A DNA stretch of 64,000 nt from Clostridiales bacterium (GTDB lineage: Bacteria; Bacillota; Limnochordia; Darwinibacteriales; B1SED10-159). The notes under the pieces were generated by a model. The model saw nothing but the letters and a program-made list of their open reading frames with translations. It was not told where the DNA came from and searched no databases. This document shows positions 2,103-60,951 of the stretch, one piece after another. The translations under genes were made by a program, and so were the position numbers. The stretch is from contig PWMW01000057.1 of assembly GCA_003559095.1 (NCBI GenBank), positions 6,538 through 70,537 of the forward strand, in the 5' to 3' direction. The stretch's first letter is position 1; each line of letters begins with the position of its first letter.

Positions 2103-2260
2103 TGACGATACCTGTCCTCAACGGGCCGCCGAGGATCAGCAGACTGATTGCTCATGGACGGCAGGATTTTCGTCTGCTTTGGTTAATGCATTAGGGAAAG
2201 AGGGAACCACGCCAAAGGCAGCACGCCCAATGCCCGCGGCGCAGAGGCATAATGCCCTAG

Positions 2261-2379
2261 AACGTGTTGGTAAACAACCCTGGCGAGCTCCTAACAAGCG
2301 ACGCGAAATCGCTGTAGCTGCGATTTCCCCGCGGTGTCTGGTCTGTGTTTGCGCGGAATTTCAGGGAAATCCACACGTT
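2261..2379 (+). repeat. Copy A of the ~119-nt TIR-bounded intergenic element
   Basis: aacgtgttggtaaacaaccctggcgagctcctaacaagcgacgcgaaatcgctgtagctgcgatttccccgcggtgtctggtctgtgtttgcgcggaatttcagggaaatccacacgtt. It aligns almost without gaps to copies at 3009, 15508 and 44251. Central hairpin GAAATCGC/GCGATTTC is at 2305..2327. Confidence 0.85.
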
Positions 2380-2437
2380 CTTAAGCACTCGGCGAACGAG
2401 ATTTTGCAGCACAACGTACTATCAAGGAGGCTCGGTT

Positions 2438-2989
2438 ATGTATTGGCAGGGAGCAGGCGCAGCCTTTACGCAGCAGACAGCCCGGGTGGCTGCCGACTAT
2501 TGGCAGACTCAGGAGCTGCCAGTGGTAGCAGCATCCAATACGGGAGACACAATCGAAGTATTATGTCAAGCCGGCATTCCAGCGGCAGCCATCGTCTGCG
2601 TGACCCACATGGTAGGCTTTCGAGAGCCAGGCCATGACGAAATGGCCGCGGAGACCAGAGATGCTCTAAAAGCCCAAGAGACCAAGGTTTTGACAACTAC
2701 GCATGCCTTGGCCGGCGTGGATCGAGCACTGCGCTTTCAGTTTCAAGGTATTTATCCTCCGGAGATTATTGCCCATTCCCTTCGTATGCTGGGGCAAGGC
2801 GTGAAGGTGTGCGTCGAGATTGGCATTATGGCCTTGGACGCGGGATTGATTCCTCACGGACAAAAGATCATTGCCATTGGGGGCAGCGGCCGCGGCGCCG
2901 ATACAGCGGTTGTCTTAACACCGGCCCATTCCAATGCCGTGTTTGAAACGATGATCCACGAAATTCTCTGCAAACCCGCTGATTGGTAG
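2438..2989 (+). CDS. Stand-alone pyruvate-kinase C-terminal (alpha/beta) domain-like protein
   Basis: Track ORF 2345..2989, trimmed to ATG 2438 behind AAGGAGG. VVAASNTGDT...IIAIGGSGRGADTAVVLTPAH resembles the PK_C-like family. Confidence 0.55.
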   Translation: MYWQGAGAAFTQQTARVAADYWQTQELPVVAASNTGDTIEVLCQAGIPAAAIVCVTHMVGFREPGHDEMAAETRDALKAQETKVLTTTHALAGVDRALRFQFQGIYPPEIIAHSLRMLGQGVKVCVEIGIMALDAGLIPHGQKIIAIGGSGRGADTAVVLTPAHSNAVFETMIHEILCKPADW

Positions 2990-3008
2990 TTGTCAACACG
3001 TTTCCAGA

Positions 3009-3128
3009 AACGTGTCGATAAAGAACCTTGGCGAGCTCATAACACGCGACGCGAAATCGCTGTAGTTGCGATTTCACTGAGGTGTCCGGTCTGTGGTTGA
3101 TCAGTATTCCGGGAAAGTCAACAAGCTT
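3009..3128 (+). repeat. Copy B of the ~119-nt element
   Basis: aacgtgtcgataaagaaccttggcgagctcataacacgcgacgcgaaatcgctgtagttgcgatttcactgaggtgtccggtctgtggttgatcagtattccgggaaagtcaacaagctt. It lies between convergent genes, and its 3' end overlaps the last codons and stop of mtnN. Confidence 0.85.
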
Positions 3129-3819
3129 CTAGCACGGCCTCAACGACCTGTGTCAGCCGGGGAATCACCGACTGAAGGAACGTTTCAAAGTTTTCCGGGG
3201 CACTGGCATCAGCCTTGTCGGAAATAACGCGAATAACGACGTACGGAATGGAGTTGAGGTGTGCAGTGTGAGCCACTGCTGCTCCTTCCATCTCAGCGCA
3301 CAGGGCCGCAAAGCTCTGACTGATTCGCTGTTTTGCCCCGGCGCCACTGATGAACTGATCGCCGCTGACAATCAATCCGGTGTGGACTTTGTCTGAACCA
3401 AAGATCTGCCGGGCAGCATTCTGAGTCAGCTGGACTAGATGCTGGTCTGCGGCAAAACGGCTAGTAGCCATGAAGGGTATCTCACCTACGGAAAATCCCA
3501 GTGCCGTGGTGTCAAAATCGTGATAGAGCGCGGCAGAGGAGATTGCGATGTCGCCAATATCTGCTATTGGGGCGATGGCGCCAGCCGCTCCAGAGTTGAT
3601 GATTCGTTCAGGCTTGTAGTGATCTGCCAAAATCTGAGTGCAAATGGCGGCATTGACTTTGCCAATGCCACAACGGACAAGAACGACCGCTTTTCCAGCC
3701 AGCGTCCCCTCGAAAAATGTCAGTCCTGCCTGACGATACTCCTTTTCGATCTGCATATGTTCCCGCAGCAGCACTACTTCCTCTTCCATGGCTCCTATGA
3801 CAGCAATTGGCCTTTCCAT
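3118..3819 (-). CDS. mtnN: 5'-methylthioadenosine/S-adenosylhomocysteine nucleosidase
   Basis: MERPIAVIGAMEEEV...GIGKVNAAICTQ...NSGAAGA...AEMEGAAVAH motifs. The track ORF extends to 3855, but the ATG at 3819 fits the family N-terminus. Confidence 0.85.
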   Translation of the reverse strand: MERPIAVIGAMEEEVVLLREHMQIEKEYRQAGLTFFEGTLAGKAVVLVRCGIGKVNAAICTQILADHYKPERIINSGAAGAIAPIADIGDIAISSAALYHDFDTTALGFSVGEIPFMATSRFAADQHLVQLTQNAARQIFGSDKVHTGLIVSGDQFISGAGAKQRISQSFAALCAEMEGAAVAHTAHLNSIPYVVIRVISDKADASAPENFETFLQSVIPRLTQVVEAVLEAC

Positions 3820-7158: not shown

Positions 7159-8145
7159 ATGCAACTACAGCCATTGACTCGCAACTTCTTTTCCTCGTCA
7201 CCTCACAAAGAACGGCTCTGGCGGTGGGTTTGTCTTGGGATTACAGCAGTTCTAACGATTCTTCTGGTCCTTTTCTGGTATCCGCTGCGCAGCCCAGAAC
7301 TAACGTATCCCTATGTGGCCGTCGCCATTCGTCATGGCTATTTGACACCTTTGTTTCGCTTCATCACCATGCTGGGCAGCGAAGGGTTCTTTTTGGTGGC
7401 ATTGTCTGTGATCCATTGGTCGGTGCACAAAGGTTTGGGCTTTTGGGGCCTTATCCTGATGCCGTTGTCCATCTTGGTAACCAGTGAGATCCCGAAGGAT
7501 ATCACGCGTCTGCCGCGGCCGGATATTCGCGGGGTTGCTGTGCCGACGTATACCTTTCCCAGTGGGCATACATCCGGAGCCGTTAGTGTCTGGGGTTACG
7601 CTGCCATTGTTCTCAAAAACACGAAGTTTTGGATTTTGGCACTGGCGCTCATGCCCCTTGTAGGCCTGTCGCGCGTGGTTCTGGGATACCATTTTCCTGG
7701 GGATGTTGTCGGTGGCTTAGTGGCTGGTGTGCTATTCCTTGCCCTCTGCTTTTGGTTTGTTACAGTGCCGGGTCACAGTGAGTTGGTGCACGGCATTCCG
7801 TTTTGGCTGCAGGCAGTATTGGTCACTGGCATTCCGTTCGCAGCCTCTTTTCTGCCCGTAAAACTAGGTCCTGGGCTGTTGGGATACGTTGCCGGGGCAG
7901 CCCTAGGGCATCTATTCGAGCAGCGCTGTCTGGGCTTTCACACCGATGGTTCTAACCGTCAGCACGCGCTGCGGGGAGCATTAGGCTTGCCGCCGCTGGC
8001 CCTTTTTATTGTGGGATTGGCCTACATCGTTCCCGGCGCGTCCTGGTTGATCTTTCTCCGCTATGGATTGGCAACATTCTGGATCACCTATTGGGCTCCG
8101 CAGGTCTTTATCCGCTTGGGTTGGATGGAGCGGGTGGAGAGCTAG
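7159..8145 (+). CDS. PAP2-family membrane phosphatase (lipid phosphate / undecaprenyl-PP phosphatase-like)
   Basis: Canonical PAP2 motifs KDITRLPRP, PSGH and SRVVLGYHFPGDV. Start set to ATG 7159 behind AAGGAG. Confidence 0.8.
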   Translation: MQLQPLTRNFFSSSPHKERLWRWVCLGITAVLTILLVLFWYPLRSPELTYPYVAVAIRHGYLTPLFRFITMLGSEGFFLVALSVIHWSVHKGLGFWGLILMPLSILVTSEIPKDITRLPRPDIRGVAVPTYTFPSGHTSGAVSVWGYAAIVLKNTKFWILALALMPLVGLSRVVLGYHFPGDVVGGLVAGVLFLALCFWFVTVPGHSELVHGIPFWLQAVLVTGIPFAASFLPVKLGPGLLGYVAGAALGHLFEQRCLGFHTDGSNRQHALRGALGLPPLALFIVGLAYIVPGASWLIFLRYGLATFWITYWAPQVFIRLGWMERVES

Positions 8146-14865: not shown

Positions 14866-15312
14866 ATGATGCTACAGTCTTGGATCGATCAATTGAAACG
14901 AAATGGGCATAAAGTGACAGCGCCGCGGCGAAAGCTTCTGCAGTACTTGGATGGGCGGGACGCACCGTTTACGGCCGAGGAGATCTATGGTGAACTGTCT
15001 GCAACGGGTGTTGGCCGCGCCACGGTATTTCGCACGTTGAAGCTTCTCCAGGATGTAGGCGTATTGGTTCGGGTTCACCTAGAACACGGGTGTCAGCATT
15101 ACCAAGCTGCGCCTGGGATACCCGGTGATACACACCACCATGATCGCATCATCTGTCGGGAATGCGGGGACATCGCGCTTTTGGACCAATGTCCCATGCG
15201 TTCCGATGTTTCCGACATTGCTCGCCGTTCAGGATTTCGTATCCAAGGTCATCATCTGGACCTATACGGTATCTGCAGCAGTTGCGAGGAACTGCCAACA
15301 AAGGATGACTAG
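14866..15312 (+). CDS. Fur-family metalloregulator, probably Zur by context
   Basis: Winged-helix segment TAPRRKLLQYL...RATVFRTLKLL, HHHD, and two CxxC pairs (CRECG, CSSC). It lies upstream of a zinc-type ABC importer. Confidence 0.75.
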   Translation: MMLQSWIDQLKRNGHKVTAPRRKLLQYLDGRDAPFTAEEIYGELSATGVGRATVFRTLKLLQDVGVLVRVHLEHGCQHYQAAPGIPGDTHHHDRIICRECGDIALLDQCPMRSDVSDIARRSGFRIQGHHLDLYGICSSCEELPTKDD

Positions 15313-15507
15313 CAGGCCTGCCTCGAACATGGGCGGTCCTTCCCCTTTTCATGTTTTATGGTGTCAGGTCACTGGCATGGACGTCTGTTGCATAGACGTC
15401 TTTCCACGGGCAACACTTACGGGTCTCCTCAGAGAAACGCCTGCTAAGCGGCATTTCGCTCGCGGTCGTAAACCACGTATTGCTGTCTATGACACAGGTC
15501 TGCTAGC

Positions 15508-15626
15508 AACGTGTTGACAAAGTACGCTGGCGAGCCCTTAACAGACGAAGCGAAATCGCTCTAGCTTCGATTTCACCGAGGTGTTCCCCCTGCGGTTGCT
15601 CGGACTTCCAGGACCATTGACACGTG
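15508..15626 (+). repeat. Copy C of the ~119-nt element
   Basis: aacgtgttgacaaagtacgctggcgagcccttaacagacgaagcgaaatcgctctagcttcgatttcaccgaggtgttccccctgcggttgctcggacttccaggaccattgacacgtg. It lies between the Fur-family gene and the poly-His gene. Confidence 0.85.
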
Positions 15627-15726
15627 CAGGGAAGGCATCGTTTTTCGATAGTTACCAAGGAACTTTGTTGGAAATCACAAAGTTCCTCTGGACACGGGCA
15701 CCAAATTGCTTTAGTATAGACATAAA

Positions 15727-15741
15727 TGATACCAAGTATCA
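15727..15741. promoter_or_regulatory. Fur-family 7-1-7 box TGATACC-A-AGTATCA
   Basis: An inverted repeat 5 nt upstream of the AGGAGG RBS of the poly-His gene, close to the TGATAAT-N-ATTATCA consensus. Confidence 0.5.
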
Positions 15742-15759
15742 ATACAGGAGGTTAGAACT

Positions 15760-17139
15760 ATGAAGCGTAACGTATTTGGAAGTTTGGTTTTGGTGCTGGT
15801 GCTTATCTTGGCGACGGCCATTGCTGGTGCACATTCAGATCACAGTGATGATGATCATGACCATCATCATGACCATCACGGACATCATCACACCCACGAC
15901 GATGTCTCTCACCGCTTGTTTGTTGTTTCCGAAACAGGAACACAGATGATCTTTTTGGATATCTTGGATCACCAGATCGTTGACCACGGACTCGTTGACT
16001 TCGGAGCAGCAACAACAGATGTGCTTGTGTCTGAAAACGGGCGTTATTTGGCGTTCTTGGTGCCCGACACCGATCAGGTTCAAGTATGGTCTAGTGGTCT
16101 GTTTTTGGAGGAGCACGGGGACCACTACGATGTAGTAGCTGTGCGCCCCGCATTATTTTGGGAACACCGTGTCGGTCGCGATTCGCAGCGGCTGCGCAGT
16201 CATGGTCCGGACTTCCTCATAGGCAACACGGACGATGGAACCGTGTCCCTGCTGCAAAGTGAAGACGGTATTCAGCTGGTGCTTCCTGGTGGAGGAGGTC
16301 CGGCTGATTTCGATGAGAACTCCGTCGCTCTGACCGATCCTCAGCTGGGTCTGCTTGACATCTTTACACGCCACCCATTGACGAAGCGAGCCACACTGCG
16401 CCTGCCTGCAGAACCACAGCAGGTGATCGTCAGCGGGAACCATGCATTCGTAAGCCTGCGCGATGGCTGGTATAAGCTGGATCTCACAGATCTTTCCGGC
16501 CACGTGCACGGAGAACTTTGGCAGGCAGCGCCAGCTGTAGTTTGGAGCCACCCGGATTCAGGTTGGATCTATGCACTGGTTGATAATGCAATCCATGGCT
16601 TTGACACGCACGCAGGGGCGGTCGAACTGTATCCTCTGGACCATTCTGGGGTACTGTCTGTGGACCAGGACAGCCACTATGCTGTGGCCATAGGAGACAG
16701 TGGTCTTGACCTTCACCTTGTGGACGTGGGTCACGGCGGCATCCACAGTGCAGACAGCACCGGGCTCGTGTTTGAACAGCCGATTTTGGCCGTGGCTTGG
16801 GCTGGTAGAGATATCGCGGCGGTAACCGATGATGGAGTACTTTGGTTGGTATCTCGCGACGGTCGAGTCCGTGATCGCTTCGAACTTCCATTCGTTGGTG
16901 ATAAAGTAGTGACAGCCTTCATCCCCGATCACGAGAAGCACCTGCACCCTCACGACCATGACCATCATCATGACCATGACCATCATCACGATCATGACCA
17001 TCATCACGATCATGACGAGCACCACCACGATCATGACGAGCACCACCACGATCATGACGGACATCATCACGATCATGACGAGCACCACCACGATGGCGAG
17101 CATGACGACGAACACCACGACCACAATCACAGCCATTAA
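15760..17139 (+). CDS. Secreted His/Asp-rich protein with predicted beta-propeller core; candidate AztD-like periplasmic zinc metallochaperone
   Basis: Signal peptide MKRNVFGSLVLVLVLILATAIAGA. N-terminal HSDHSDDDHDHHHDHHGHHHTHDD and a ~65-aa C-terminal H/D/E tail. The middle has repeated strand-turn segments. It lies directly upstream of the ZnuA-like SBP. Confidence 0.5.
   Translation: MKRNVFGSLVLVLVLILATAIAGAHSDHSDDDHDHHHDHHGHHHTHDDVSHRLFVVSETGTQMIFLDILDHQIVDHGLVDFGAATTDVLVSENGRYLAFLVPDTDQVQVWSSGLFLEEHGDHYDVVAVRPALFWEHRVGRDSQRLRSHGPDFLIGNTDDGTVSLLQSEDGIQLVLPGGGGPADFDENSVALTDPQLGLLDIFTRHPLTKRATLRLPAEPQQVIVSGNHAFVSLRDGWYKLDLTDLSGHVHGELWQAAPAVVWSHPDSGWIYALVDNAIHGFDTHAGAVELYPLDHSGVLSVDQDSHYAVAIGDSGLDLHLVDVGHGGIHSADSTGLVFEQPILAVAWAGRDIAAVTDDGVLWLVSRDGRVRDRFELPFVGDKVVTAFIPDHEKHLHPHDHDHHHDHDHHHDHDHHHDHDEHHHDHDEHHHDHDGHHHDHDEHHHDGEHDDEHHDHNHSH
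16945..17136 (+). repeat. Imperfect in-frame tandem repeat of CAY/GAY codons (unit about 21 nt, HHHDHDE)
   Basis: gagcaccaccacgatcatgac recurs three times with variants. It encodes the C-terminal His/Asp tail. Confidence 0.8.
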
Positions 17140-17144
17140 CTGAG

Positions 17145-17162
17145 GAGCCGCGCAAGCGGCTC
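17145..17162 (+). terminator. Short hairpin GAGCCGC-GCAA-GCGGCTC after the poly-His gene
   Basis: A 7-bp stem followed by TTGCTTCC. It is weak and could be an attenuator within the operon. Confidence 0.3.
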
Positions 17163-17224
17163 TTGCTTCCGTTGTTCGGCACGTACGAATGAACTCCGCC
17201 AAATTTTCTTGGGAGGTTTGATTT

Positions 17225-18136
17225 ATGTTCTTTAGCAAAGAAGGACGCATTGTCGTTTTGGGTTTGGTGGCGGCACTTTTGATAACCCTCTTGGTTCCGG
17301 CAGCTGCCACTGCCGCATCACTACGGGTGGTGGCGACGTTCTCTGTGATCGCTGACATGGCGGAGCAGGTGGGTGGCACCAAGGCTGAGGTCAGTTCCAT
17401 TGTTCCATTGGGCGGTGATCCCCACACCTGGGAACCCACACCTCGGGAAGCCCGCCATTTGGCCACGGCCGACGTTCTGCTCTATAATGGCTTGGGTCTC
17501 GAGCTGTGGGTGGACCGTCTTATTCGCAGTGCCGCCCGGCCGGACCTGCCGGTGATCGTGCTGTCTGAAGGCCTTGAGCCGATACCCGGCGCCTCGTTTG
17601 CCGCACATGTGCATGAAGAAGGCGATCCTCACTTCTGGTTGAATGTGCAGTACGGTATGCATTACGTGGAAAGGATTTTGGCTGCTTTCGTCCAGTTGGA
17701 TCCGGACAACGCGGCATATTATACTGCCAATGCCGAAAGGTATCTGCAGACATTGGCAGAATTAGATCAATGGATAGAGCAGGCTGTCCTGCAGATTCCT
17801 GAAGAGCGGCGCAAATTGGTCACGTATCATGATGCCTTCGGCTACTTGGCCCAACGCTATGGCTTTGAAATCAGCGGGTTCTTGGTTGTGAACCCGGATC
17901 GTGAACCAAGTTCCAGAGAAATGGCTAACATTGTGCGACAACTGGCTTCGCAGGAACGCCCGGTGATCTTTGTGGAACCACAGGTTAGCTCTGGTCACCG
18001 CTACGCCGAGGCTGTGGCCAGCGAGGTGGGCGGCAGCGTGGGACTTTTGTACAGTGACAGTCTCACCGAGGAGGTGCCGACGTACGTAGACATGATGCGT
18101 TGGAATGTGAATCAGTTATTGGAGGCTCTGCAATGA
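17225..18136 (+). CDS. Metal (Zn/Mn) ABC transporter substrate-binding protein, ZnuA/TroA cluster A-I
   Basis: LRVVATFSVIADM...GGDPHTWEPTP...HEEGDPHFW motifs. Confidence 0.85.
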   Translation: MFFSKEGRIVVLGLVAALLITLLVPAAATAASLRVVATFSVIADMAEQVGGTKAEVSSIVPLGGDPHTWEPTPREARHLATADVLLYNGLGLELWVDRLIRSAARPDLPVIVLSEGLEPIPGASFAAHVHEEGDPHFWLNVQYGMHYVERILAAFVQLDPDNAAYYTANAERYLQTLAELDQWIEQAVLQIPEERRKLVTYHDAFGYLAQRYGFEISGFLVVNPDREPSSREMANIVRQLASQERPVIFVEPQVSSGHRYAEAVASEVGGSVGLLYSDSLTEEVPTYVDMMRWNVNQLLEALQ

Positions 18137-18900
18137 GTGGGCAAACCGCAGGTTTGGCCGTCGAGGTCAAAGGCTTGACCGCGGCCTATGAACGTAAAGA
18201 AGTACTATCTGGTGTGAACTGGCAGGTGCCAAAGGGACACTTGGCCGCCATCATCGGGCCTAATGGCGGGGGTAAGTCTACGCTGCTCAAATCGTTGGTG
18301 GGCATGGTGCAGCCGCGAGTTGGTGAGGTGCGGCTCTTTGGTCGGCGGCCGAAGGATGCCAGGGGCGAGGTGGCGTATCTGCCGCAGTCAGAAGAGGTCG
18401 ACTGGAGCTTCCCGATCAGCGTCCTGCAGGTGGTCCTGCAGGGACGCACTGCCCATCACAGATGGTGGCAGCGCAATCATCTCCAGGATAGGGAAAAGGC
18501 CATGGAGTCATTGGGCAAAGTTAGAATGGCGGATTACGCGCACCGGCCTATCGGAGCCCTTTCGGGAGGGCAGAAGCAGCGAGTATTCATTGCACGGGCT
18601 CTAGCTCAGGACGCGGATTTGGTTATCATGGATGAACCCGGGACCGGTTTGGATTCCACGGCACAGCACGAACTGTTGGATCTTTTCGTGGAGATGAAAG
18701 CGGCCGGCCATACGGTTGTTATTACCACCCACGATCTCAACTGTTTGGCAGAGCACTTCGACTTGGTCTTGGGTCTTAACGGGATCGTCATGGTTGCAGG
18801 ACCACCGCGGGAAGTCTTGACAGGGGAAATCATCACGTCGCTATTTTCACGTCACTTTCCGGTTATCACACCTGAAGGGGGAGTGGCTATGCATGATTGA
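18133..18900 (+). CDS. Metal ABC transporter ATP-binding protein (ZnuC-like)
   Basis: GPNGGGKST, LSGGQKQR and LVIMDEPGTGLD motifs. The ATGA overlaps the SBP stop. Confidence 0.85.
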   Translation: MSGQTAGLAVEVKGLTAAYERKEVLSGVNWQVPKGHLAAIIGPNGGGKSTLLKSLVGMVQPRVGEVRLFGRRPKDARGEVAYLPQSEEVDWSFPISVLQVVLQGRTAHHRWWQRNHLQDREKAMESLGKVRMADYAHRPIGALSGGQKQRVFIARALAQDADLVIMDEPGTGLDSTAQHELLDLFVEMKAAGHTVVITTHDLNCLAEHFDLVLGLNGIVMVAGPPREVLTGEIITSLFSRHFPVITPEGGVAMHD

Positions 18901-19747
18901 TTTTTTCTTGGAGCCCTTTCAGTTCTCCTTTATGACGCGAGCGTTGGCTGGCACAGCGATGATTGCCCTTCTATCTGCCATGATTGGAACGTTCGTGGTG
19001 CTGAAAGGGTTGGCATTCATTGGGGATGCCATCGCCCATACCAGTTTTAGCGGGCTAGCCCTGGCACTGCTTGTGGGGATGAATCTTTATGTTGGTGCCT
19101 TGATCTTTGCTCTGCTGACTGCTTTTGGAGTTACGTTTCTTCAGCGCACGGCCAAAATGCGCAGTGACACGGCCTTGGCTATCATGTTCACTGGCGCGTT
19201 TTCCTTCGGGATCATTTTGCTGGCGGCCATGCCCAACTTTGCCGGGGACTTGACTGCTTTGTTACTGGGTTCGGTTCTGGGTATCCGCATGCAGGAGCTC
19301 TATTGGATCGCGGGCGCTGTTTTGGTGACAGCCGCCATCTTGGCCTTGGTATGGGACCATTTGGTCTACGTTTCCTTTGATCCTGTGGGCGCGGAGGCTG
19401 CGGGACTACCTGTAACAAAGATCCAATTACTGCTGCTCTCATTGATCGCCGGTGCCATTGTGGTATCGATTCAGGCTGTAGGTATGATTCTAGTGGTGGC
19501 ACTGCTCATAACCCCAGCGGCTACGGCGTCCATTTTTACCCGGCGTTTGGTGCCCATGATGATCGTGGCGGCGGGCTTTGGTTTGCTGGCCGTGTTCGTG
19601 GGTTTGCTGCTGTCCTACTATTTGTCAGCCCCACCTGGCGCCACGATTGTTCTTGTAGCCACTCTTGAGTTCGGCATTGCTCTGGCTGTGTCTGCTGGTG
19701 TGCGGCGTCTTTTGTGGCGAACGGCAATGGAGGTGAGGGAGACATGA
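18893..19747 (+). CDS. Metal ABC transporter permease (ZnuB-like)
   Basis: 284-aa polytopic ABC-3 family pattern, overlapping both neighbouring genes. Confidence 0.8.
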   Translation: MIDFFLEPFQFSFMTRALAGTAMIALLSAMIGTFVVLKGLAFIGDAIAHTSFSGLALALLVGMNLYVGALIFALLTAFGVTFLQRTAKMRSDTALAIMFTGAFSFGIILLAAMPNFAGDLTALLLGSVLGIRMQELYWIAGAVLVTAAILALVWDHLVYVSFDPVGAEAAGLPVTKIQLLLLSLIAGAIVVSIQAVGMILVVALLITPAATASIFTRRLVPMMIVAAGFGLLAVFVGLLLSYYLSAPPGATIVLVATLEFGIALAVSAGVRRLLWRTAMEVRET

Positions 19748-24884: not shown

Positions 24885-26207
24885 TTAAAGGGGAAAGATG
24901 GCCACATCCTTGAGCTGCCAATATTGGTCTAGGGGCGTAAGCTGCAGGCGCACAAGATGGCGGTGTTGATCCGTAGTCAGTATCACGTGGAATCTGACGG
25001 AACCCGTCTCTGCATGGGTTACATCCTGAATTTGCGTCTGCAGGACATCACCTATGGATCTGACAAAGGCTGCCAGAGCTTGCCGTTGCTCATCATCGGC
25101 AAACGAACGATCCCACCACAAAGAGTCCTGGGTCCATGGGGTGGTCAGCAGCCGCTCTAGCCACAGCTCCAAACTTTCCAAGAGAACACCGGTGTCTTGG
25201 GATGGTGCTGGTGTAATCTGTAGTTCCGTGACATACCAGGTGGAATCAACCAACTGCCACCCTTTGGTCCAATACACCTCACGGCCGTCCCATTCAGCCT
25301 GGAACCGGCTTTCTGCTGTATTCTCGTCCAACTGCTGCCACTGCCAGTCAGCTGCAGCCTGCAGGTGCGAAAGGGCATCCTTGATCCGCTGCAGTTGTTG
25401 CGGCTCTCGCAGTACGTTGCTGAAATAGTTCTCCCAATCCTCCACCGAAGACTCTTGTTCCCACAGTTGCTGCAGGGAGAGGCTGCGTTCAGCAAACGGA
25501 ACGTCCAGGGGTTCGGGCTCTAGGGGGGCGGTGTCTTCGTCGGTGTCTAAAGGAGCCGCCGGAGGTTCATCGGTGTCCTGGTCCACTTCGGGAACTCCAT
25601 GGTCGGTACCGGGCGGCACTGGGGATGGGGTGTCAGTGGGTTCTGGAGGCGCAACAGCGGTCCCCGAAAACTCAATGACTGGGTAATCCTCAGTGACCGC
25701 ACGGCGAAATTTGCGAACCCCGGGACCGGCTGGAAGTTGCTCCCAGGTCCCCGTCAACTGACCGCTGCTGTCCGGTGCGAACTCCACGGTCAAGGTCTCC
25801 AGACTGAAAATGTTGGACATACGCGGGAACCAGAGGGAATCCTCCGCAAGGCGTCCTGATTCCAAAACGCCACTGGGAAGGATGCCTTCGTACGAAATCT
25901 CCAAGGGCTGCGGTGATTGCGGCTGCGAGCGCAGTGTCACCGTGAGGCGGGTGGCTGAGGGACGCCGATCAACTCCATAGCTGAGCATACCCGGAATCCA
26001 GATGGCCGTAACCTGGGCACCTGGAAAGAGAGAAAATTCCAGCGTCGAACTTTCTAGGGTTACCGTAAAGGCCGCAGTGACGCGCAAAAATTCCTGTTCC
26101 GGTTGGAAAAAAACATGGATTGCATCGGCCTCGACGGCGGAGGATACGGCGCTGGAAAAGTGCAGCAACAATAAAAAAATCATGGCAAGGATCTTCACGG
26201 AATTCAA
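24885..26207 (-). CDS. Secreted hypothetical protein (signal peptide, acidic Pro-rich linker, Trp-rich C-terminal domain)
   Basis: MNSVKILAMIFLLLLHFSSAVSSAVEA signal peptide and PPEPTDTPSPVPPGTDHGVPEVDQDTDEPPAAPLDTDEDTAPLEPEPLD linker. I recognise no family. Confidence 0.6.
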   Translation of the reverse strand: MNSVKILAMIFLLLLHFSSAVSSAVEADAIHVFFQPEQEFLRVTAAFTVTLESSTLEFSLFPGAQVTAIWIPGMLSYGVDRRPSATRLTVTLRSQPQSPQPLEISYEGILPSGVLESGRLAEDSLWFPRMSNIFSLETLTVEFAPDSSGQLTGTWEQLPAGPGVRKFRRAVTEDYPVIEFSGTAVAPPEPTDTPSPVPPGTDHGVPEVDQDTDEPPAAPLDTDEDTAPLEPEPLDVPFAERSLSLQQLWEQESSVEDWENYFSNVLREPQQLQRIKDALSHLQAAADWQWQQLDENTAESRFQAEWDGREVYWTKGWQLVDSTWYVTELQITPAPSQDTGVLLESLELWLERLLTTPWTQDSLWWDRSFADDEQRQALAAFVRSIGDVLQTQIQDVTHAETGSVRFHVILTTDQHRHLVRLQLTPLDQYWQLKDVAIFPL

Positions 26208-41468: not shown

Positions 41469-42734
41469 GTGGAACCACTAGCTCTTGCAGGCGGTCCGAA
41501 AGTCCGCCAGACGCCTTGGGTTTCGGAGTTCCAGGGCGTAGAAGATATCGGACAGGAAGAAAAAGATCGCATTCTCGGGGTGTTGGACAAAAAGCGAATC
41601 TTTCGGTATCTAGCCCGTGGGTACGAAGAATCGGAGGCGTACCAACTGGAGCAGGAGTACAAGGAACTTACAGGGTGCCGTTATGCGTTAGCCATGAACA
41701 GCGGAACCTCTGCCTTGATCAGTGCTTTGATAGGTCTTGGTGTGGGGCCTGGTGATGAGGTGATCGTGCCCGCATTCGCCTGGATAGCCACTGTGTCGGC
41801 AGTGCTGGAAGTGAACGCCGTGCCGGTTCTCTGCGAGATGGACGCGTCTTTGACGTTGGATCCCGCCGATCTGGAGCGCAAGCTTACGCCTCGGACCAAG
41901 GCAGTCATCGCTGTACACATGCGCGGCATCTCCTGTGATATGGACCCTATTTTGGAGATAGCCCGACGCCATGACATCGTAGTTCTCGAGGACACGGCAC
42001 AGGCCAATGGCGGTACATACAAAGGCCGAGCCCTGGGCTCTTTGGGAGCAGCGGGCTGCTTCAGCCTGCAGCAGTACAAAATTGTCACTTCCGGTGAAGG
42101 CGGTATTATGGTCACCGATGATGAGATTGTTTGGCAGCGGGCCGCCCTTTATCACGATTGCGGCCGCAACCCGTTCCATTTTCATGAACTTAAGGTACCT
42201 ACATTCGCTGGGCAGAACTATCGGATTACAGAGCTGCAGGCGGCGCTTTGTCTTGGCCAAATGGAACGAATGCAGCAAATCATTACCAACATGCGAACGC
42301 AAAAACAACAGATCGTTCAAGGATTGTCCGGTATCCCGGGTATCGGTATGAGTTCCGTGTTCGGTACCGAGCGGGACTTAGGCGTCAGTGCAGTATTCAT
42401 GCTGCCGGATGCGCAGACTGCGGTGCAGTTCCGGGAGGCTCTGGAGGCGGAGGGAATTCCCTGTGGGGTGGTTTACAGCCCAGGGCAGCAGAATCTGCAC
42501 ATTTATCCCTTCTGGGATTTTCTGATGGACAAACGTGATGCTTGGGGTAAGGGGCATCCATGGAGCAGTGGGATGTACGCCGGTGACGTCCAATACAGCC
42601 GCGATATGTGCCCGCAGACTTTGGATCTGTTGGGACGGTCCATCCAAATTCGTCTGAACCAGTATGTCCGCCAGCAGGATACAGAGGATCTGGTGACAGC
42701 TGTCGCGAAGGTGGCTGATCATATCTTAAAGTGA
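41469..42734 (+). CDS. DegT/DnrJ/EryC1/StrS-family PLP aminotransferase
   Basis: ALAMNSGTSAL, GDEVIVPAFAW and SLQQYKIVTSGEGG (Lys) motifs. GTG start. Confidence 0.8.
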   Translation: MEPLALAGGPKVRQTPWVSEFQGVEDIGQEEKDRILGVLDKKRIFRYLARGYEESEAYQLEQEYKELTGCRYALAMNSGTSALISALIGLGVGPGDEVIVPAFAWIATVSAVLEVNAVPVLCEMDASLTLDPADLERKLTPRTKAVIAVHMRGISCDMDPILEIARRHDIVVLEDTAQANGGTYKGRALGSLGAAGCFSLQQYKIVTSGEGGIMVTDDEIVWQRAALYHDCGRNPFHFHELKVPTFAGQNYRITELQAALCLGQMERMQQIITNMRTQKQQIVQGLSGIPGIGMSSVFGTERDLGVSAVFMLPDAQTAVQFREALEAEGIPCGVVYSPGQQNLHIYPFWDFLMDKRDAWGKGHPWSSGMYAGDVQYSRDMCPQTLDLLGRSIQIRLNQYVRQQDTEDLVTAVAKVADHILK

Positions 42735-42748
42735 AAAGGAAGGCGTTC

Positions 42749-44101
42749 ATGGAACAGTTGCGGCAGCCCCGGACAAAGACGGGCTTGAGTAAAGAATTGA
42801 TTCGTTTGGCCAGTCCAATGATCTTGGCCAACTTAGCCTACACGCTTCTGGGTGCGGCAGATACGTTTTTCCTAGGACGCGTTAGTACGGTGGCTTTGGG
42901 TGCAGTGGGTTTAGCCAGTATGATGTTCTTGACATTCTCCCTGTTGATGCGGGGTACCATCAATGGCGCTACGACCTTTGTTTCGCGTATGTATGGTGCT
43001 GGCAACAAACCGCAGGCCGGTAAGCACTTCCAGTCGTTTTTGATCTTGTCGTTGGTGATCACGCCCCTGATCTTGTTCCTGCCAACGTTGTTCCGCCTGT
43101 ACTTCGACGCTCTGCGTCCGGACCCCGCCGTGGCGGAGCAGGCACTGCTCTACGTTTCCATTCGTCTTTGGGAAATTCCCTTTTCCTTGTTGGTCACGGC
43201 TTGCATTGGGTTTTTGGTGGGCATTGGCAACAGCCGTACTCCAATGATCCTGTCGTGGATGGCCGTGATTATCAACATCGGTGCTAACTATGTATTGATT
43301 TTTGGTCATTTTGGATTTCCTGCCATGGGCATTGCCGGAGCTGCGTGGGGAACCGTGTTTGCCGTGGCTGTCCAAGCGGCGGCAGCCATCTTCATTGTGT
43401 TCCGACGCTATGGGGAGGAGTATGATCTGGGCTCATGGCAGATGCCACGTCTCCAGACCCTCTGGATCATCGGGAAAGTGGGTCTGCCCATGGGTGTGAC
43501 AGAGTCGATGGAGTTAGCAGCTTTTTCGACGTTCTTCGCTCTCATATCACGCCTGGGTACGGCGGAATTGGCTGCCAGCCAGATTGCCAACCAAGTGGCA
43601 GCTATTGCTTTTATGCCGGGATTTGCCCTCAGCGCGGCTACGGGTTCTTTGGTCGGCCGTTTCATGGGAGCGAACAAGCTCCACCTCTCGCAATCGGTGG
43701 GCTACCGCGGCGCTATCATGGGTGCTGGAGCCATGGGCTTTTTGGGTGTGATGTTCTGGGTGTTTTCGGCCCAGGTCGGCCGCATCTTCACAACGGATCC
43801 CCAGGTGATTGAACTGACCCGCGTCATTATGCGGATGATGGCATTTTATCAGGCGTTTGATGGCTTTAATATCGTGTTTCGCGGTGCCCTTAACGGCGCC
43901 GGGGATACTAGGTTCACGATGGCCATTACTACCATCGGTTCTTGGGCGGTGTTCATACCCAGCGTGTATCTACTGGCCTTTGGGCTTGGTGTGGGTTTGG
44001 TCGGTGCTTGGCTGGGGGCGATATTCTACATTCTCAGCATTGGTCTTGTGTTCTTTGGTCGTTTCTGGCGGGGAAGTTGGAAGACAATCCAGCTCACATA
44101 G
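42749..44101 (+). CDS. MATE-family efflux transporter
   Basis: 12-TM pattern with LGRVSTVALGAVGLA and the second-half repeat. ATG 42749 behind AAGGAAGG (the track starts at GTG 42731). Confidence 0.8.
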   Translation: MEQLRQPRTKTGLSKELIRLASPMILANLAYTLLGAADTFFLGRVSTVALGAVGLASMMFLTFSLLMRGTINGATTFVSRMYGAGNKPQAGKHFQSFLILSLVITPLILFLPTLFRLYFDALRPDPAVAEQALLYVSIRLWEIPFSLLVTACIGFLVGIGNSRTPMILSWMAVIINIGANYVLIFGHFGFPAMGIAGAAWGTVFAVAVQAAAAIFIVFRRYGEEYDLGSWQMPRLQTLWIIGKVGLPMGVTESMELAAFSTFFALISRLGTAELAASQIANQVAAIAFMPGFALSAATGSLVGRFMGANKLHLSQSVGYRGAIMGAGAMGFLGVMFWVFSAQVGRIFTTDPQVIELTRVIMRMMAFYQAFDGFNIVFRGALNGAGDTRFTMAITTIGSWAVFIPSVYLLAFGLGVGLVGAWLGAIFYILSIGLVFFGRFWRGSWKTIQLT

Positions 44102-44250
44102 GTGTGTCGATACACGCAAAGGGATGATTTCGCCGACCGCTCCGTAACCGGAGGGAAGCCGGTCCCTTTTGGCCTAGCGATGACTCATGGGGCCCCTGGG
44201 AGACGGCGAGTGGTTCTGCGGAGGAGGCGGCAGTGGTCATTGAGTCCAGA

Positions 44251-44369
44251 AACGTGTTGATTAAGTACCCTGGCGAGCTCTTAACAAGAGACGCGAAATC
44301 GCTTTAGCTGCGATTTCACCGAGGCTTTTGGCCTGTGTTCGCTCGAATTTCCGGGAAGATCAAAACGTT
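44251..44369 (+). repeat. Copy D of the ~119-nt element
   Basis: aacgtgttgattaagtaccctggcgagctcttaacaagagacgcgaaatcgctttagctgcgatttcaccgaggcttttggcctgtgttcgctcgaatttccgggaagatcaaaacgtt. Confidence 0.85.
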
Positions 44370-44399
44370 CCTAGGATGAGACATTTTTGTACGGGTTGG

Positions 44400-44431: not shown

Positions 44432-44785
44432 TGCGTTTGCCCATGGATCTCTTGGTAAGCCAAACCCAAGCCAAGTTCAACCGATGGTCCTGAACTGTCG
44501 CTGGATCTGCAACAGTCGGCGTACTTACAGGCCGTCATCGGGACCAAGCCCGGGCGTCTCTTGGGGGCCTTGGCCGCGATCATCGGAAGAATCGGCCCAA
44601 CCAGCGGCTTGCAGTAGGAATTAGCGAGCCAATCTCGAAGAAGTACACGAAACGATGAGCAGATAAACATGCTGGTGCCGTTGGATTTCGCTGTGGCCCG
44701 AACATGACCGTTGCCGACGTTTCCTCGGTGGCACTACTGCGGTTCCGGACAATCCAATATTCTGACGAAAAAGGAGTCCTCTTTC

Positions 44786-46390
44786 ATGCAATTTGATGCC
44801 AATTTTTACCCGTATCCGTCCCGACGCACAGTGGTGTACGGCCGTCGCGGCATGGTGGCAGCCTCACAGCCATTGGCTGCTCAAGCTGGACTGAGCATCC
44901 TGCAAAAAGGTGGCAACGCCGTAGACGCAGCGGTGGCCGCCGCCGCCGCCCTGCCCGTTGTGGAACCAACCTCCAATGGCATTGGTGGTGATCTTTTCGC
45001 CATTGTGTGCAAGGATGGTGAACTTCATGGGCTGAACTCCAGTGGGTCTGCACCCGCCCGTTTGACCCCGGAACTGGTGCGGCGCAGTGGTCACCCGGAA
45101 ATGCCCAGCCACGGTTGGCTGCCAGTCACTGTCCCAGGTATCCCCGGGGGCTGGGCAGCATTGTCCGCGCGTTTCGGAGCATTGTCGTTGGCTGATTGTG
45201 TGGAACCGGCGGCCCTTTATGCCGAACACGGTCATGCTGTGGCTCCTGTCGTCAGCTATTATTGGCGGACGGCGGCCAAACGTTACGGGGAACTCTTTGA
45301 GGGTTCAGAGTTTGCGCCCTGGTTCGATACCTTCGCTCCGCAGGGAACAGGGCCACAGCCCGGAGAAGTGTGGACGTGTGCTTCCATGGCCGAAACTCTG
45401 CGCAGCATTGGAAGCAGCAAGGGCCACAGTCTGTACCGCGGCCAGTTAGCCCAGAAGATCGCGGCTTTCGCCGCCGCCACCGGTGGTATCATTGCCGAGG
45501 AGGATCTAGCTGCTTTTGAGCCCCAGTGGGTTGAGCCGTTATCCGTCGCTTACCGGGGCTATACGGTCTGGGAACTGCCCCCCAACGGCCAGGGGTTGGT
45601 AGCCTTGCTGGCGCTGGGGATCCTTGACGGAATGGATTACACGCCTGACAATGTTCAGTGGACCCACCAGATGATCGAGGCCGTCAAACTGGCCTTCGCT
45701 GACGGCAAAGCATGGATTACTGATCCGCAGGAGATGACTGTCACTACAGAACAGCTATTGGCAGCGGATTATCTGGCGGAGCGCCGAGCATTGATCGGAG
45801 AGCGGGCTGCAACGCGTACTCCAGGGGACGTCAATCCCGGGGGAACCGTATACTTAGCAACAGCTGACAACCAAGGCAACATGGTTTCGCTTATTCAAAG
45901 TAACTACATGGGCTTTGGCTCTGGGATTGTTGTTCCCGGAACAGGGATTGCTCTGCAGAATCGGGCGCATACGTTTAGCCTGGATCCCAAGGATGCTAAT
46001 TACCTGCGCCCCGGTCGACGCACGTACCACACCATCATTCCTGGTTTCCTCACCAAGGATGGCAAGCCCATGGGTCCTTTTGGTGTCATGGGTGGTTTCA
46101 TGCAGCCGCAGGGCCATGTACAGGTCCTCTCCCGCACCTTGGATGAACAACTGAACCCGCAGGCCGCCTTGGACGCACCTCGCTTTTACTGGGAAGACGG
46201 CTGCTCCGTTCAGGTGGAACGTGCCATGCCGGCCCACGTTATCGAAGGGCTCCAAACCCGAGGACACCAACTGACGGTGGCCAACGAGGCGGGCTTGTTC
46301 GGCCGGGGCCAAATCATCTGGAGTATGCCTCAGGGTGTTCTAGCTGGTGGAACGGAAGCCCGAGCCGACGGAACCGTGGCGGTATGGTAG
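44786..46390 (+). CDS. ggt: Gamma-glutamyltransferase
   Basis: NAVDAAVAAAAALPVVEPTSNGIGGD, GGTVYLATAD (Thr nucleophile) and GVMGG motifs. ATG behind AAGGAG. Confidence 0.85.
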   Translation: MQFDANFYPYPSRRTVVYGRRGMVAASQPLAAQAGLSILQKGGNAVDAAVAAAAALPVVEPTSNGIGGDLFAIVCKDGELHGLNSSGSAPARLTPELVRRSGHPEMPSHGWLPVTVPGIPGGWAALSARFGALSLADCVEPAALYAEHGHAVAPVVSYYWRTAAKRYGELFEGSEFAPWFDTFAPQGTGPQPGEVWTCASMAETLRSIGSSKGHSLYRGQLAQKIAAFAAATGGIIAEEDLAAFEPQWVEPLSVAYRGYTVWELPPNGQGLVALLALGILDGMDYTPDNVQWTHQMIEAVKLAFADGKAWITDPQEMTVTTEQLLAADYLAERRALIGERAATRTPGDVNPGGTVYLATADNQGNMVSLIQSNYMGFGSGIVVPGTGIALQNRAHTFSLDPKDANYLRPGRRTYHTIIPGFLTKDGKPMGPFGVMGGFMQPQGHVQVLSRTLDEQLNPQAALDAPRFYWEDGCSVQVERAMPAHVIEGLQTRGHQLTVANEAGLFGRGQIIWSMPQGVLAGGTEARADGTVAVW

Positions 46391-59054: not shown

Positions 59055-60428
59055 TTACATGAGATGTCCCAGCAGAATGGAGGCTATGGTGAAGTAGATG
59101 AATAATCCACTGAGGTCTTTGATGGTCGTAATAATGGGGTCGGCACCCGCGGCCTGGTCCAATCCCATCTTCGTCAAGGTGTAGGGGACCACAAACCCAA
59201 CCACGGTGGCCAATGTAACGGTGAAGAAGAGCGACATGGTTACGACCAGACCCAACTCCAGCATGCCCTGCCAAAACCAAGCGAAAAGGCCGCCGCTGAC
59301 ACCAAGTAAGACGCCAATGGACATACCCACCCGGGTTTCGCGCCACAGCTGTGTCAAAAACTGGTCCATGTTGATATGACCCAAGATCAATCCGCGGGTG
59401 AAGATCGTGGAAGACTGAGTGCCGACGTTACCGCCCATATCCATAATGACGGGGATAAAGAAAGCAAGAATGACAACAGTTTCCAGGGCTTCTTCGAAGA
59501 CGCCAATCAGTCCGCCGGCGGCCAAACCGCCGACCAAGGTAATGATCAGGTAAGGAAGCCGGGCCCGCAGGACCACGGGAATGGCTCCTTTGACCAAGTC
59601 GTAGCTGCGAGTGGACTCACGGCTTTGAATGTCTCCCAAACCGGCCTTGGCGTAGATGTCCTCAGTGGCTTCTTCCTGGAGGATATCCATGGCGTCGTCC
59701 ACTGTGATAATCCCGACCAACCGGTTTTCTTTGTCCACAACGGGCAGGGCCAACAGATCATGTTCTTGGATCTTGAGGGCGGCCACTTCCTGGTCTTCGT
59801 CGGTCTGACTGCTGACAATATCCACTTCCATCAGATCGCCGATGACGGCATCATCTTCGGCCAAAACCAAATCCTTGAGGGATACAACACCCCGCAGGTT
59901 CCGGGTATTATCGGTGACGTAGCAGTAATAAATTGTCTCGCGTTCTGGGCTGACCCGGCGGATCTTGGCCAAAGCTTCCCGCACGGTCATGTTCTCCCGC
60001 AGCGAAACGTATTCCGGGGTCATAATACGCCCGGCAGTGTCTGGTTTGTAGCCCATCAGCAATCCCACGGCCTGCCGGTCTTCCGAGGACAGCCGGCTCA
60101 GGAGGCGCTTGGCCACTTTGGCTGGCAGCTCGTCTAGAAGTTCCACTTGGTCGTCGGGATCCAGGCTGCTGATGAGTTCCAGGGCTCTTTCCTCTTGGAA
60201 GCTGCTGAGCAGTGTTTGCTTCTCTTCGACGTTGAGCTGTTCGAAAACTTCCATGGCCAGATCCTTGGGTAGGAGTCGAAAGACAGGCCCCTGCTCAGCT
60301 AGGGGCAGCACCCGGATCAGTTGGGCTACATAAACATGGTTCTCGTCTCGGAGAGCTCGTTTAACAGCTTCGAGGTTCTTCTGTTCCAGATCTTCACGGA
60401 TTTGTGCATACAGTTTTTCAAAGCTCAT
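59055..60428 (-). CDS. mgtE: Magnesium transporter MgtE
   Basis: N-domain, tandem CBS domains and the C-terminal PVIMDMGGNVGTQSST motif. Confidence 0.9.
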   Translation of the reverse strand: MSFEKLYAQIREDLEQKNLEAVKRALRDENHVYVAQLIRVLPLAEQGPVFRLLPKDLAMEVFEQLNVEEKQTLLSSFQEERALELISSLDPDDQVELLDELPAKVAKRLLSRLSSEDRQAVGLLMGYKPDTAGRIMTPEYVSLRENMTVREALAKIRRVSPERETIYYCYVTDNTRNLRGVVSLKDLVLAEDDAVIGDLMEVDIVSSQTDEDQEVAALKIQEHDLLALPVVDKENRLVGIITVDDAMDILQEEATEDIYAKAGLGDIQSRESTRSYDLVKGAIPVVLRARLPYLIITLVGGLAAGGLIGVFEEALETVVILAFFIPVIMDMGGNVGTQSSTIFTRGLILGHINMDQFLTQLWRETRVGMSIGVLLGVSGGLFAWFWQGMLELGLVVTMSLFFTVTLATVVGFVVPYTLTKMGLDQAAGADPIITTIKDLSGLFIYFTIASILLGHLM

Positions 60429-60733: not shown

Positions 60734-60940
60734 ATGAACCCCTTCTCAACAGGAGAAGGGGTTCATTGTAACACAACAAAGAACGCCTCCCTTGTTGAGC
60801 TTTAGCACTATAGGGTTAGAGTTTAGCTCGGCTACATTAGATCATACCTTAATCCGATAAGACCTGTTCACCCATTGGCGTCTCTCGACATTTTTGGGCA
60901 GCAGCTCATCCCCTATAGGAGCCTCACCTAACGAAGAGGT
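60734..60940 (-). promoter_or_regulatory. M-box (ykoK) Mg2+ riboswitch with intrinsic terminator
   Basis: The minus strand reads CUUCGUUAGGUGAGGCUCCUAUAGGGGAUGAGCUGCUGCCCAAAAAUGUCGAGAGACGCCAAUGGGUGAACAG...AAGGUAUGAUCUAAUGUAGCCGAGCUAAACUCUAACCCUAUAGUGCUAAAGCUCAAC, nearly collinear with the B. subtilis mgtE M-box. It is followed by the hairpin AUGAACCCCUUCUC-loop-GAGAAGGGGUUCAU + UUUAU (60734..60766). Confidence 0.9.
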
Positions 60941-60951
60941 TATCCATACAT

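Follow-up and report, generated by a model that had tools for sequence, protein, structure and literature searches.

The described element nearest in kind to the repeats analyzed here is MITEPsy1, a 100-nt transposable element of the miniature inverted-repeat type (MITE) from Pseudomonas syringae pv. phaseolicola whose repeats start GGAAGGTC, which comes from an IS5-family insertion sequence (IS), duplicates 4 nt of CTAG/YTAA, and has ISPsy2 as its parent, its mobility having been trapped experimentally (PMC3189936). Within the IS5 group of the IS5 family, ISKpn26 has the ends GGAAGGTGCGAACAAG and GGAAAGTGCGAATAAG and a 4-bp duplication (PMC10569121), and CTAG has been reported as an IS5 duplication (PMC10379815). 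According to Tenzen and Ohtsubo (1991), as cited in PMC2170065, IS630 prefers TA within 5'-CTAG-3' and duplicates TA. Here we analyzed a 64,000-nt stretch, termed the window, of a Clostridiales bacterium genome (GCA_003559095.1, contig PWMW01000057.1, positions 6,538 to 70,537), which carries four copies (c1 to c4), all on the + strand, of a ~121-nt repeat designated family A. These copies very probably represent a family of nonautonomous DNA transposons (MITEs) that target CTAG, being neither a new RNA gene nor a regulator.

Family A resembles MITEPsy1 in its length (~100 to 120 nt), its noncoding and dispersed nature, its CTAG/YTAA insertion site, and its GGAAGGT-like ends (GGAAGGTCTGAAAAAGCC in MITEPsy1 and GGAACGTGTTGAT at the right end of family A, counting the flanking G); the ends of a sister family, family C, (CTAG)GAAGGTGTTG, are GGAAGGT-like as well. 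However, no homology extends past the first ~8 repeat bases, the hosts are Pseudomonadota and Bacillota, respectively, and family A has a conserved central hairpin common to its sister families. With IS5 elements such as ISKpn26, it would share ends of the GGAAGGTGCGAA type and a putative 4-bp target duplication of the YTAR/CTAG/TTAA type (PMC10569121, PMC10379815), but those elements are autonomous, ~1.2 kb long, and equipped with a DDE transposase gene, whereas family A is 121 nt long and has no gene. Compared with the IS5-group ends (GGAAGGTG), the A and C ends match GGAAGGTGCGAACAAG and GGAAGGTCTGAAAAAGCC at 7 of the first 8 positions and then diverge. The flanks of family A fit IS630, ISY100, and Tc1-mariner elements equally well when they are read as C-TA-[G...C]-TA-G. 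Tc1/IS630 ends typically begin with CAGT-type termini; those of family A lack such a start and look more IS5-like. IS5 parentage is favored, at about an even chance, with IS630 parentage as a rather doubtful second choice.

Among the MITEs of the IS630, ISY100, and Tc1-mariner group, those of the RUP type in Streptococcus pneumoniae measure ~107 nt and have terminal repeats. The Correia elements of Neisseria and the ERIC elements of enterobacteria are ~100- to 160-nt intergenic palindromic MITEs that form a rod fold, duplicate TA, are often cotranscribed with their neighbors, and in some cases act as a source of promoters, terminators, or processing sites; they have no sequence relation to family A and differ from it in that their effects on transcripts are documented. 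REP and REPIN sequences are short, intergenic, hairpin forming, and abundant, with a conserved tetranucleotide beside the hairpin, and a REPIN consists of two inverted copies of a single ~25-nt palindrome with no separate terminal repeats or target duplication. Family A, in contrast, has CTAG on both sides, and no RAYT transposase, the enzyme that goes with REP elements, was seen.

Family A copies in the window

The repeats were first noticed in an interpretation of the sequence by itself (the original prediction), and the four homologous copies that it had placed on one strand were recovered by two routes. A profile of the four copies re-found each of them at E = 5e-36 to 6e-38 and gave no further copy in the window below E = 0.05 (nhmmer), and an independent repeat finder grouped these four into one family of 130 nt (2255-2384, 3003-3132, 15502-15631, and 44245-44374). 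The alignment is nearly gapless, as had been described, with one 1-nt gap and 70+ invariant columns, and the pairwise identity among the copies is 73 to 81%. The imperfect inverted ends (AACGTGTTGA...TCAACACGTT) and the central 8-bp hairpin (GAAATCGC-N7-GCGATTTC) that had been reported are likewise present, with 7 bp paired in c3, while, among the blocks listed as conserved, GGTCTGTG and TTCCGGGAA occur unchanged in just two copies each. The whole element adopts a rod-like fold on either strand (z = -6.0 and -7.8), which is typical of MITEs.

Six-frame translation revealed no frame open in all copies, in agreement with the earlier view that the repeat is noncoding. Searches against Rfam gave no match over any copy when the whole window was scanned at the gathering threshold (the only hit being a distant M-box), no match in 2200-3200 at E <= 10, and no match for the sister families B and C in the metagenome-assembled-genome (MAG) loci at E <= 1. 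The original statement that no existing family matches clearly thus holds for Rfam, and it also holds for a plasmid collection, in which neither the A nor the B consensus found a match.

Terminal repeats, CTAG flanks, and an empty orthologous site

The consensus of young copies from a related MAG (described below) reads CTAG-A-AACGTGTTGATAAAGTGCCCTGGCGAGCTCATAACAAGAGACTCGAAATCGCTTTAGCAGCGATTTCACCGAGGTGTTCGGCATGAGTTTGCTCGGGATACCGGGAAAATCAACACGTT-C-CTAG, and terminal inverted repeats of 13 to 16 nt, (CTAG)RAACGTGTTGAT...ATCAACACGTTY, occur in 17/17 complete copies. The flank pairs of these copies are CTAG/CTAG in six, CTTG/CTTG in one (locus L018), one base apart in seven, and degenerate in three. 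CTAG is three-fold depleted in the window (82 observed versus 243 expected), so its presence at the element borders is far from chance, and the matched CTTG/CTTG pair argues for a real duplication; because CTAG is palindromic, duplications of 2 bp (TA) and 4 bp (CTAG) look the same. The left flank is CTAG in 13/17 copies and the right flank in 8/17, and we rejected this asymmetry as a sign of an IS200/IS605- or IS91-type element, given that the difference is not significant and that the flanks of family B are symmetric. The variants seen are CTTG, CTGG, CCAG, CTAA, and TTAA; among the single-base variants of families A and B, 7/12 are CTGG or CCAG, which, speculatively, would fit T:G-to-C:G short-patch repair at CTAG. 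For the window copies, CTAG or CCAG had been claimed at each end, and this is correct on the left of all four; on the right it applies to c2 and c4, with TTAA(G) at c1 and CAGG at c3.

A comparison of loci revealed that the c2 site is empty in relatives, at an interspecies distance. With the protein of the PK_C-domain gene next to c1 and c2 as the query, syntenic contigs were obtained from relatives at 80% and 72% identity, which are MAGs from soda-lake sediments, and their syntenic PK_C loci (13 to 20 kb) contain no family A copy. In the window, a spacer of 128 nt, made up of a solo end and c2, separates the stop codons of PK_C and of the convergent gene for a purine-nucleoside-phosphorylase-family protein (PNP), versus 3 nt in L006/L007 and 19 nt in L008-L011. 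A 15-nt direct repeat (2993-3007 and 3118-3132) brackets the c2 body, and deletion of c2 plus one 15-nt repeat restores the geometry of the relatives exactly. Yet the left repeat agrees with the family end at 12 of 13 positions, and we read it as the solo end of a deleted neighboring element; this solo repeat (2992-3004) begins 2 nt past the PK_C stop and faces the left repeat of c2 in a right-repeat/CCAG/left-repeat junction. The originally suggested MITE-like element with a YTAR-type target is supported by the young copies with CTAG on both flanks, by the empty orthologous site, by the mixed orientation of the copies (see below), and by the IS5-type MITE with a CTAG/YTAA duplication that is its nearest described counterpart (PMC3189936).

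Distribution of family A

To describe the distribution of family A, a relaxed pattern, TGGCGAGCNCNTAACN{7,9}CGAAATCG, was scanned across 185,579 species genomes, and all 18 matching loci fell in one MAG, "Limnochordia bacterium CSSed165cm_473" (GCA_007132255.1), from Cock Soda Lake. Relative to the window, protein identity is 80% for its PK_C, 73% for its RsmF, and 71% for its PNP. With nhmmer, at least 18 full or partial copies were found in this MAG, the sole related genome with the element, which bears out the larger dispersed family that had been anticipated; 6 of 18 copies are cut by a contig end or lie ~40 nt or less from one. The MAG copies share a mean identity of 94.6% among themselves and ~79% with the window copies. 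Considering that a single other genome holds copies among those scanned, and that the window copies are far less alike than the ~95% identical MAG copies, family A is lineage restricted, being old and decayed in the window genome and recently expanded in its relative. Across 22 copies, the orientation relative to the downstream gene is mixed (~9 same and ~8 opposite).

A strict hairpin pattern, GCGAAATCGCTNTAGNTNCGATTTC, had no match in genome contigs or metagenome contigs, because the MAG copies differ in the loop. A 5' pattern gave three matches in metagenomes, all of them chance hits in high-GC coding DNA, a viral scan gave none, and a literature search with the repeat sequence brought up unrelated primers only. 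When the mostly open minus-strand frame of the element was used as a protein query, two spurious short open reading frames (ORFs), P0124 and P0125, were matched; P0125 lies on a family A copy in GCA_007132255.1 and provided the route to this MAG. The other mostly open frame found no match as a protein query.

Sister families and clustering

Besides family A, two further families were delimited. Family B, which lies beside many A copies, has 12 copies in the retrieved loci. Its single window copy, which has a degenerate far end, abuts c3 and shares the CTAG at 15503-15506 with it. Family C combines the terminal repeats of family A with another interior, and its hairpin is compensated (GAGAAATCCCT/AGGGATTTCTC). 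The copies at L014 are A/C chimeras whose junction falls within the hairpin loop, so that their arms mismatch. The family B copy and the solo A- and B-type repeats (Table 1) are additions to the original prediction. Where two elements adjoin (A|B, B|B, C|B, and A/C|C), exactly one tetranucleotide is common to both in 10/10 pairs, as expected if insertions target CTAG regenerated at the borders, and not if CTAG were part of each element.

The intergenic region between RsmF and PK_C is occupied in three lineages, by a family A copy (+) in the window and, in two lineages that are more distant, by a divergent B-like element (+) in L006 and a B-like element (-) in L008. A 51-aa ORF called in this region in L006/L007 is probably spurious. 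In L028 (192-311), an exact deletion of the loop and one arm (CGAAACGCC|GTTTCTCCGAG) has removed the hairpin from a B copy, which is what palindrome slippage would be expected to cause. Degenerate family B remnants upstream of c1 (2100-2255), suspected by eye, were rejected, as the profile gave no support for them even in a small search space.

Proposed mechanism of spread

For a CTAG-targeting MITE family, the following scenario may be proposed. A DDE transposase, presumably encoded elsewhere in the genome, would bind both terminal repeats, excise or copy the element, and insert it at the rare palindrome CTAG. Insertion would duplicate CTAG (4 bp, IS5-like) or its central TA (IS630-like), leaving CTAG at both borders, and each event would thereby create two fresh neutral CTAG sites in a CTAG-depleted genome. 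Given this depletion and the fresh sites, later insertions of A, B, and C would land at element borders and build head-to-tail clusters sharing one CTAG, which would later decay into solo repeats and flank variants.

Several observations weigh against this interpretation. A transposase domain is found in 0/55 window ORFs of >=110 aa, as had been noted from the start, and the full-length IS with the same termini that might have been expected did not come to light, there being no A- or B-type repeat pairs more than 130 nt apart in ~250 kb of retrieved loci. The IS5-like end match spans just ~8 positions and could have arisen by chance, and the flank pairs are identical in only 7/17 copies. No presence/absence polymorphism was seen within the species: the family B copy and c3 are present in two 99%-identical strains obtained by a Fur-based lookup, with two SNPs, indicating that the window copies are fixed, and a MatE-based lookup had no match. 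Mobility therefore rests on the interspecies comparison and on copy structure. To account for occupancy of the RsmF/PK_C region in three lineages, a hot spot or turnover has to be invoked; turnover at a CTAG landing pad could provide the explanation. Moreover, the central hairpin covaries across families with different terminal repeats, which a plain cut-and-paste MITE does not require.

One transposase gene was encountered in a relative, a 755-aa Tn5-like (IS4-family) gene with a DruA-like N-terminal match at L006 3383-5650 (-), 2.4 kb from the syntenic block; it was rejected as a partner, since no A- or B-type ends lie nearby.

Central hairpin and alternative explanations

The hairpin and the CCGAG that follows it are common to families A, B, and C, though B has different ends. 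Across 21 distinct sequences of the three families, 96.4% of cells pair, double changes occur at 3/8 pairs (UA/CG, CG/GC, and GC/CG), and the covariation score is reached by 0/500 shuffles and collapses in slid controls. Template-switch repair can yield compensatory changes in DNA quasi-palindromes without selection. The covariation may thus reflect either selection (on an RNA, on single-stranded DNA, or on a dimeric protein site) or template-switch correction of quasi-palindromes. That the hairpin (GAAA-NNNN-loop-NNNN-TTTC, then CCGAG), in which covariation between families falls in the inner stem and G-U intermediates mostly lie on one strand, is a functional module, acting as RNA or single-stranded DNA in mobilization or for the host, is unlikely, though it is a better prospect than the alternatives that follow. 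If it were true, these would be CTAG-homing elements whose spread needs more than recognition of the terminal repeats, and the landing pads that they make for themselves would also explain why an intergenic region stays occupied across lineages.

An explanation compatible with a MITE origin holds that the copies are former MITEs now kept by the host for a role between genes in antisense termination, protein binding, or mRNA stability. The hairpin of c4 with its tail GTCTCTTGTT, read on the minus strand, meets a loose terminator pattern, as does the family B hairpin on its own strand; the old window copies still keep hairpin and ends, one intergenic region is occupied in three lineages, and the PNP stop codon comes from c2. 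The resemblance to a terminator is marginal, however, and does not extend to c1, c2, or c3, the copies have no common gene class beside them, their orientation in the MAG is mixed, and some have lost the hairpin (L028) or have mismatched chimeric arms (L014). We regard such host service as quite improbable.

Slightly less probable still is a multicopy structured small RNA or cis-regulatory RNA, either with its own TTGAYA...YATAAC promoter or as part of untranslated regions (UTRs). In this view, the hairpin and a CCGAG/CTCGG helix would form the functional RNA structure, which the inverted ends would close as a stem. The pairing and compensation in the hairpin speak for an RNA, as do the strong fold, two compensatory changes in the CCGAG/CTCGG helix among the window copies, the G-U identity on the + strand of 5/6 transition-type non-Watson-Crick cells, and the placement of c1 in the likely 5' UTR and of c2 in the 3' UTR of PK_C. 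Yet Rfam offers no match even at E <= 10, and the promoter or small-RNA function raised in the original prediction finds no backing: no promoter-like site inside any copy passes the scan, the -10-like hexamer (C/T)ATAAC lacks the final T, and no terminator occurs on the + strand. The mixed orientation argues against a leader or cis-regulatory RNA, and the neighboring genes are functionally unrelated. In the 17-copy family A alignment, almost no covariation exists outside the hairpin, the variation being too small to test the remaining fold, and the compensation within the hairpin could come from the template-switch repair mentioned above. Finally, the CTAG flanks, shared junctions, solo ends, A/C chimeras, and breaks at contig ends are traits of transposons and not of RNA genes.

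A single-stranded-DNA element of the REP/REPIN or IS200/IS605 type, in which a HUH (Y1) transposase would recognize the hairpin and cleave beside CTAG, is the least probable of these explanations. It could explain why all window copies point one way along the gene-rich + strand, and it would suit the conserved and covarying hairpin and a left tetranucleotide more fixed than the right one; against it stand true terminal inverted repeats, a CTAG consensus on both sides, symmetric family B flanks, one central hairpin in place of two subterminal ones, the nonsignificance of the flank difference, and the lack of a Y1 transposase or TnpB domain among the window ORFs. With 47/55 window ORFs on the + strand and a chance probability of 1/8 for 4/4 copies in one orientation, the four + copies lend little weight to a rule of orientation. 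An attC/integron cassette reading of PK_C with c1 and c2 was dismissed, as relatives keep the gene in place without the elements and the ends have no GTTRRRY core.

Gene neighborhood

The genes next to the four copies fall into no common class (feature coordinates are given in Table 1). Copy c1 has divergent genes on its two sides, for RsmB/F and for a PK_C-domain protein, and sits 58 nt upstream of the PK_C gene (2438-2989, +). A promoter-like TTGCTT-17-TATAAT at 2074-2102, upstream of c1, is also kept in the 80% relative (L006 ~8075-8105), and a block at 2177-2201 (CTTTGGTTAATGCATTAGGGAAAGA; CTCTTGGTTAATCCTTAAAGAAAGA in L006) is likewise conserved; PK_C thus seems to carry a long 5' leader within which c1 lies. 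Copy c2 fills the spacer between PK_C (+) and PNP (-). The claim that all copies are intergenic does not extend wholly to c2, whose right repeat encodes the PNP stop TGA (3118-3120) and the last three codons; the C terminus reads LEAC* in the window versus VEQA* and IRRF* in relatives, at the same length. Copy c3 has a Fur/Zur-like gene on one side and, on the other, a His-rich gene with znuABC after it, and c4 lies between the MatE (42731-44101) and gamma-glutamyltranspeptidase (44711-46390) genes.

Table 1. Coordinates of family A copies and related elements in the window and in retrieved loci
Feature	Location	Coordinates	Strand	Remarks
Family A c1	Window	2257..2384	+	Left flank CTAG 2257-2260; element 2261-2380; right flank TTAA 2381-2384
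c1 hairpin arms	Window	2305-2312 and 2320-2327	+	
Solo A-type terminal repeat	Window	2992..3007	+	GTCAACACGTTTC (2992-3004), then CCAG
Family A c2	Window	3004..3132	+	Left flank CCAG 3004-3007; element 3008-3128; right flank CTAG 3129-3132
c2 hairpin arms	Window	3053-3060 and 3068-3075	+	
Solo family B terminal repeat	Window	15309..15320	+	CTAGCAGGCCTG; overlaps the stop codon of the Fur-family gene
Family B element	Window	15385-15506	-	~122 nt; ends CTAGCAGRCCTGTT; hairpin GAAATGCC-N8-GGCGTTTC; E 4.6e-34
Family A c3	Window	15503..15631	+	Left flank CTAG 15503-15506; element 15507-15627; right flank degenerate (AGGG)
c3 hairpin arms	Window	15552-15559 and 15567-15574	+	7 bp paired
Family A c4	Window	44246..44374	+	Left flank CCAG 44246-44249; element 44250-44370; right flank CTAG 44371-44374
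c4 hairpin arms	Window	44295-44302 and 44310-44317	+	
Family C and A/C loci	L014; L018; L012	1294-1546; 1768-1896; 1062-1192		
Divergent B-like element	L006	8121-8245	+	E 5.9e-15
Divergent B-like element	L008, also L009-L011	9732-9856 (L008)	-	E 1.8e-8

Further features of the window were observed around the c3 locus and elsewhere. A Fur-family regulator, a 459-aa His/Asp-rich protein, and a ZnuA/ZnuC/ZnuB transporter are encoded in a row (14866-19747), and the regulator is probably Zur, because the His/Asp-rich protein and the transporter come after it. The 459-aa protein contains long 9-nt-periodic His/Asp-rich repeats (16908-17123) and matches nothing in Pfam or NCBIfam. At 15658-15687, just upstream of a promoter-like site, a perfect inverted repeat of 11 bp, AGGAACTTTGT-N8-ACAAAGTTCCT, may be the operator of the Zur-like regulator. 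An M-box (Mg2+) riboswitch at 60780-60942 (-; 133 bits, E 1e-29) stands directly upstream of an MgtE transporter gene (59055-60428, -), an ordinary and expected pairing, and a 440-aa ORF on the minority strand (24885-26207, -) has no Pfam or NCBIfam match.

Biological significance

These analyses name and delimit A, B, and C, three MITE families not described before, from a Limnochordia lineage that is uncultured and inhabits soda-lake sediments. They account for the assembly breaks at these repeats and flag spurious short ORFs called on the elements, and for annotation they imply that conserved intergenic blocks of ~120 nt should not be mistaken for riboswitches or small RNA genes. With regard to the host, c2 changed the final codons and the stop codon of a gene for a nucleoside phosphorylase, and local effects on expression may be possible where copies lie in the likely UTRs of PK_C and between the Zur-like regulator and the zinc-uptake operon. 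The overall importance is modest, this being a new family of a known kind of element; as such, it provides a natural example of how CTAG-targeted insertion builds self-renewing landing pads in a CTAG-depleted genome.

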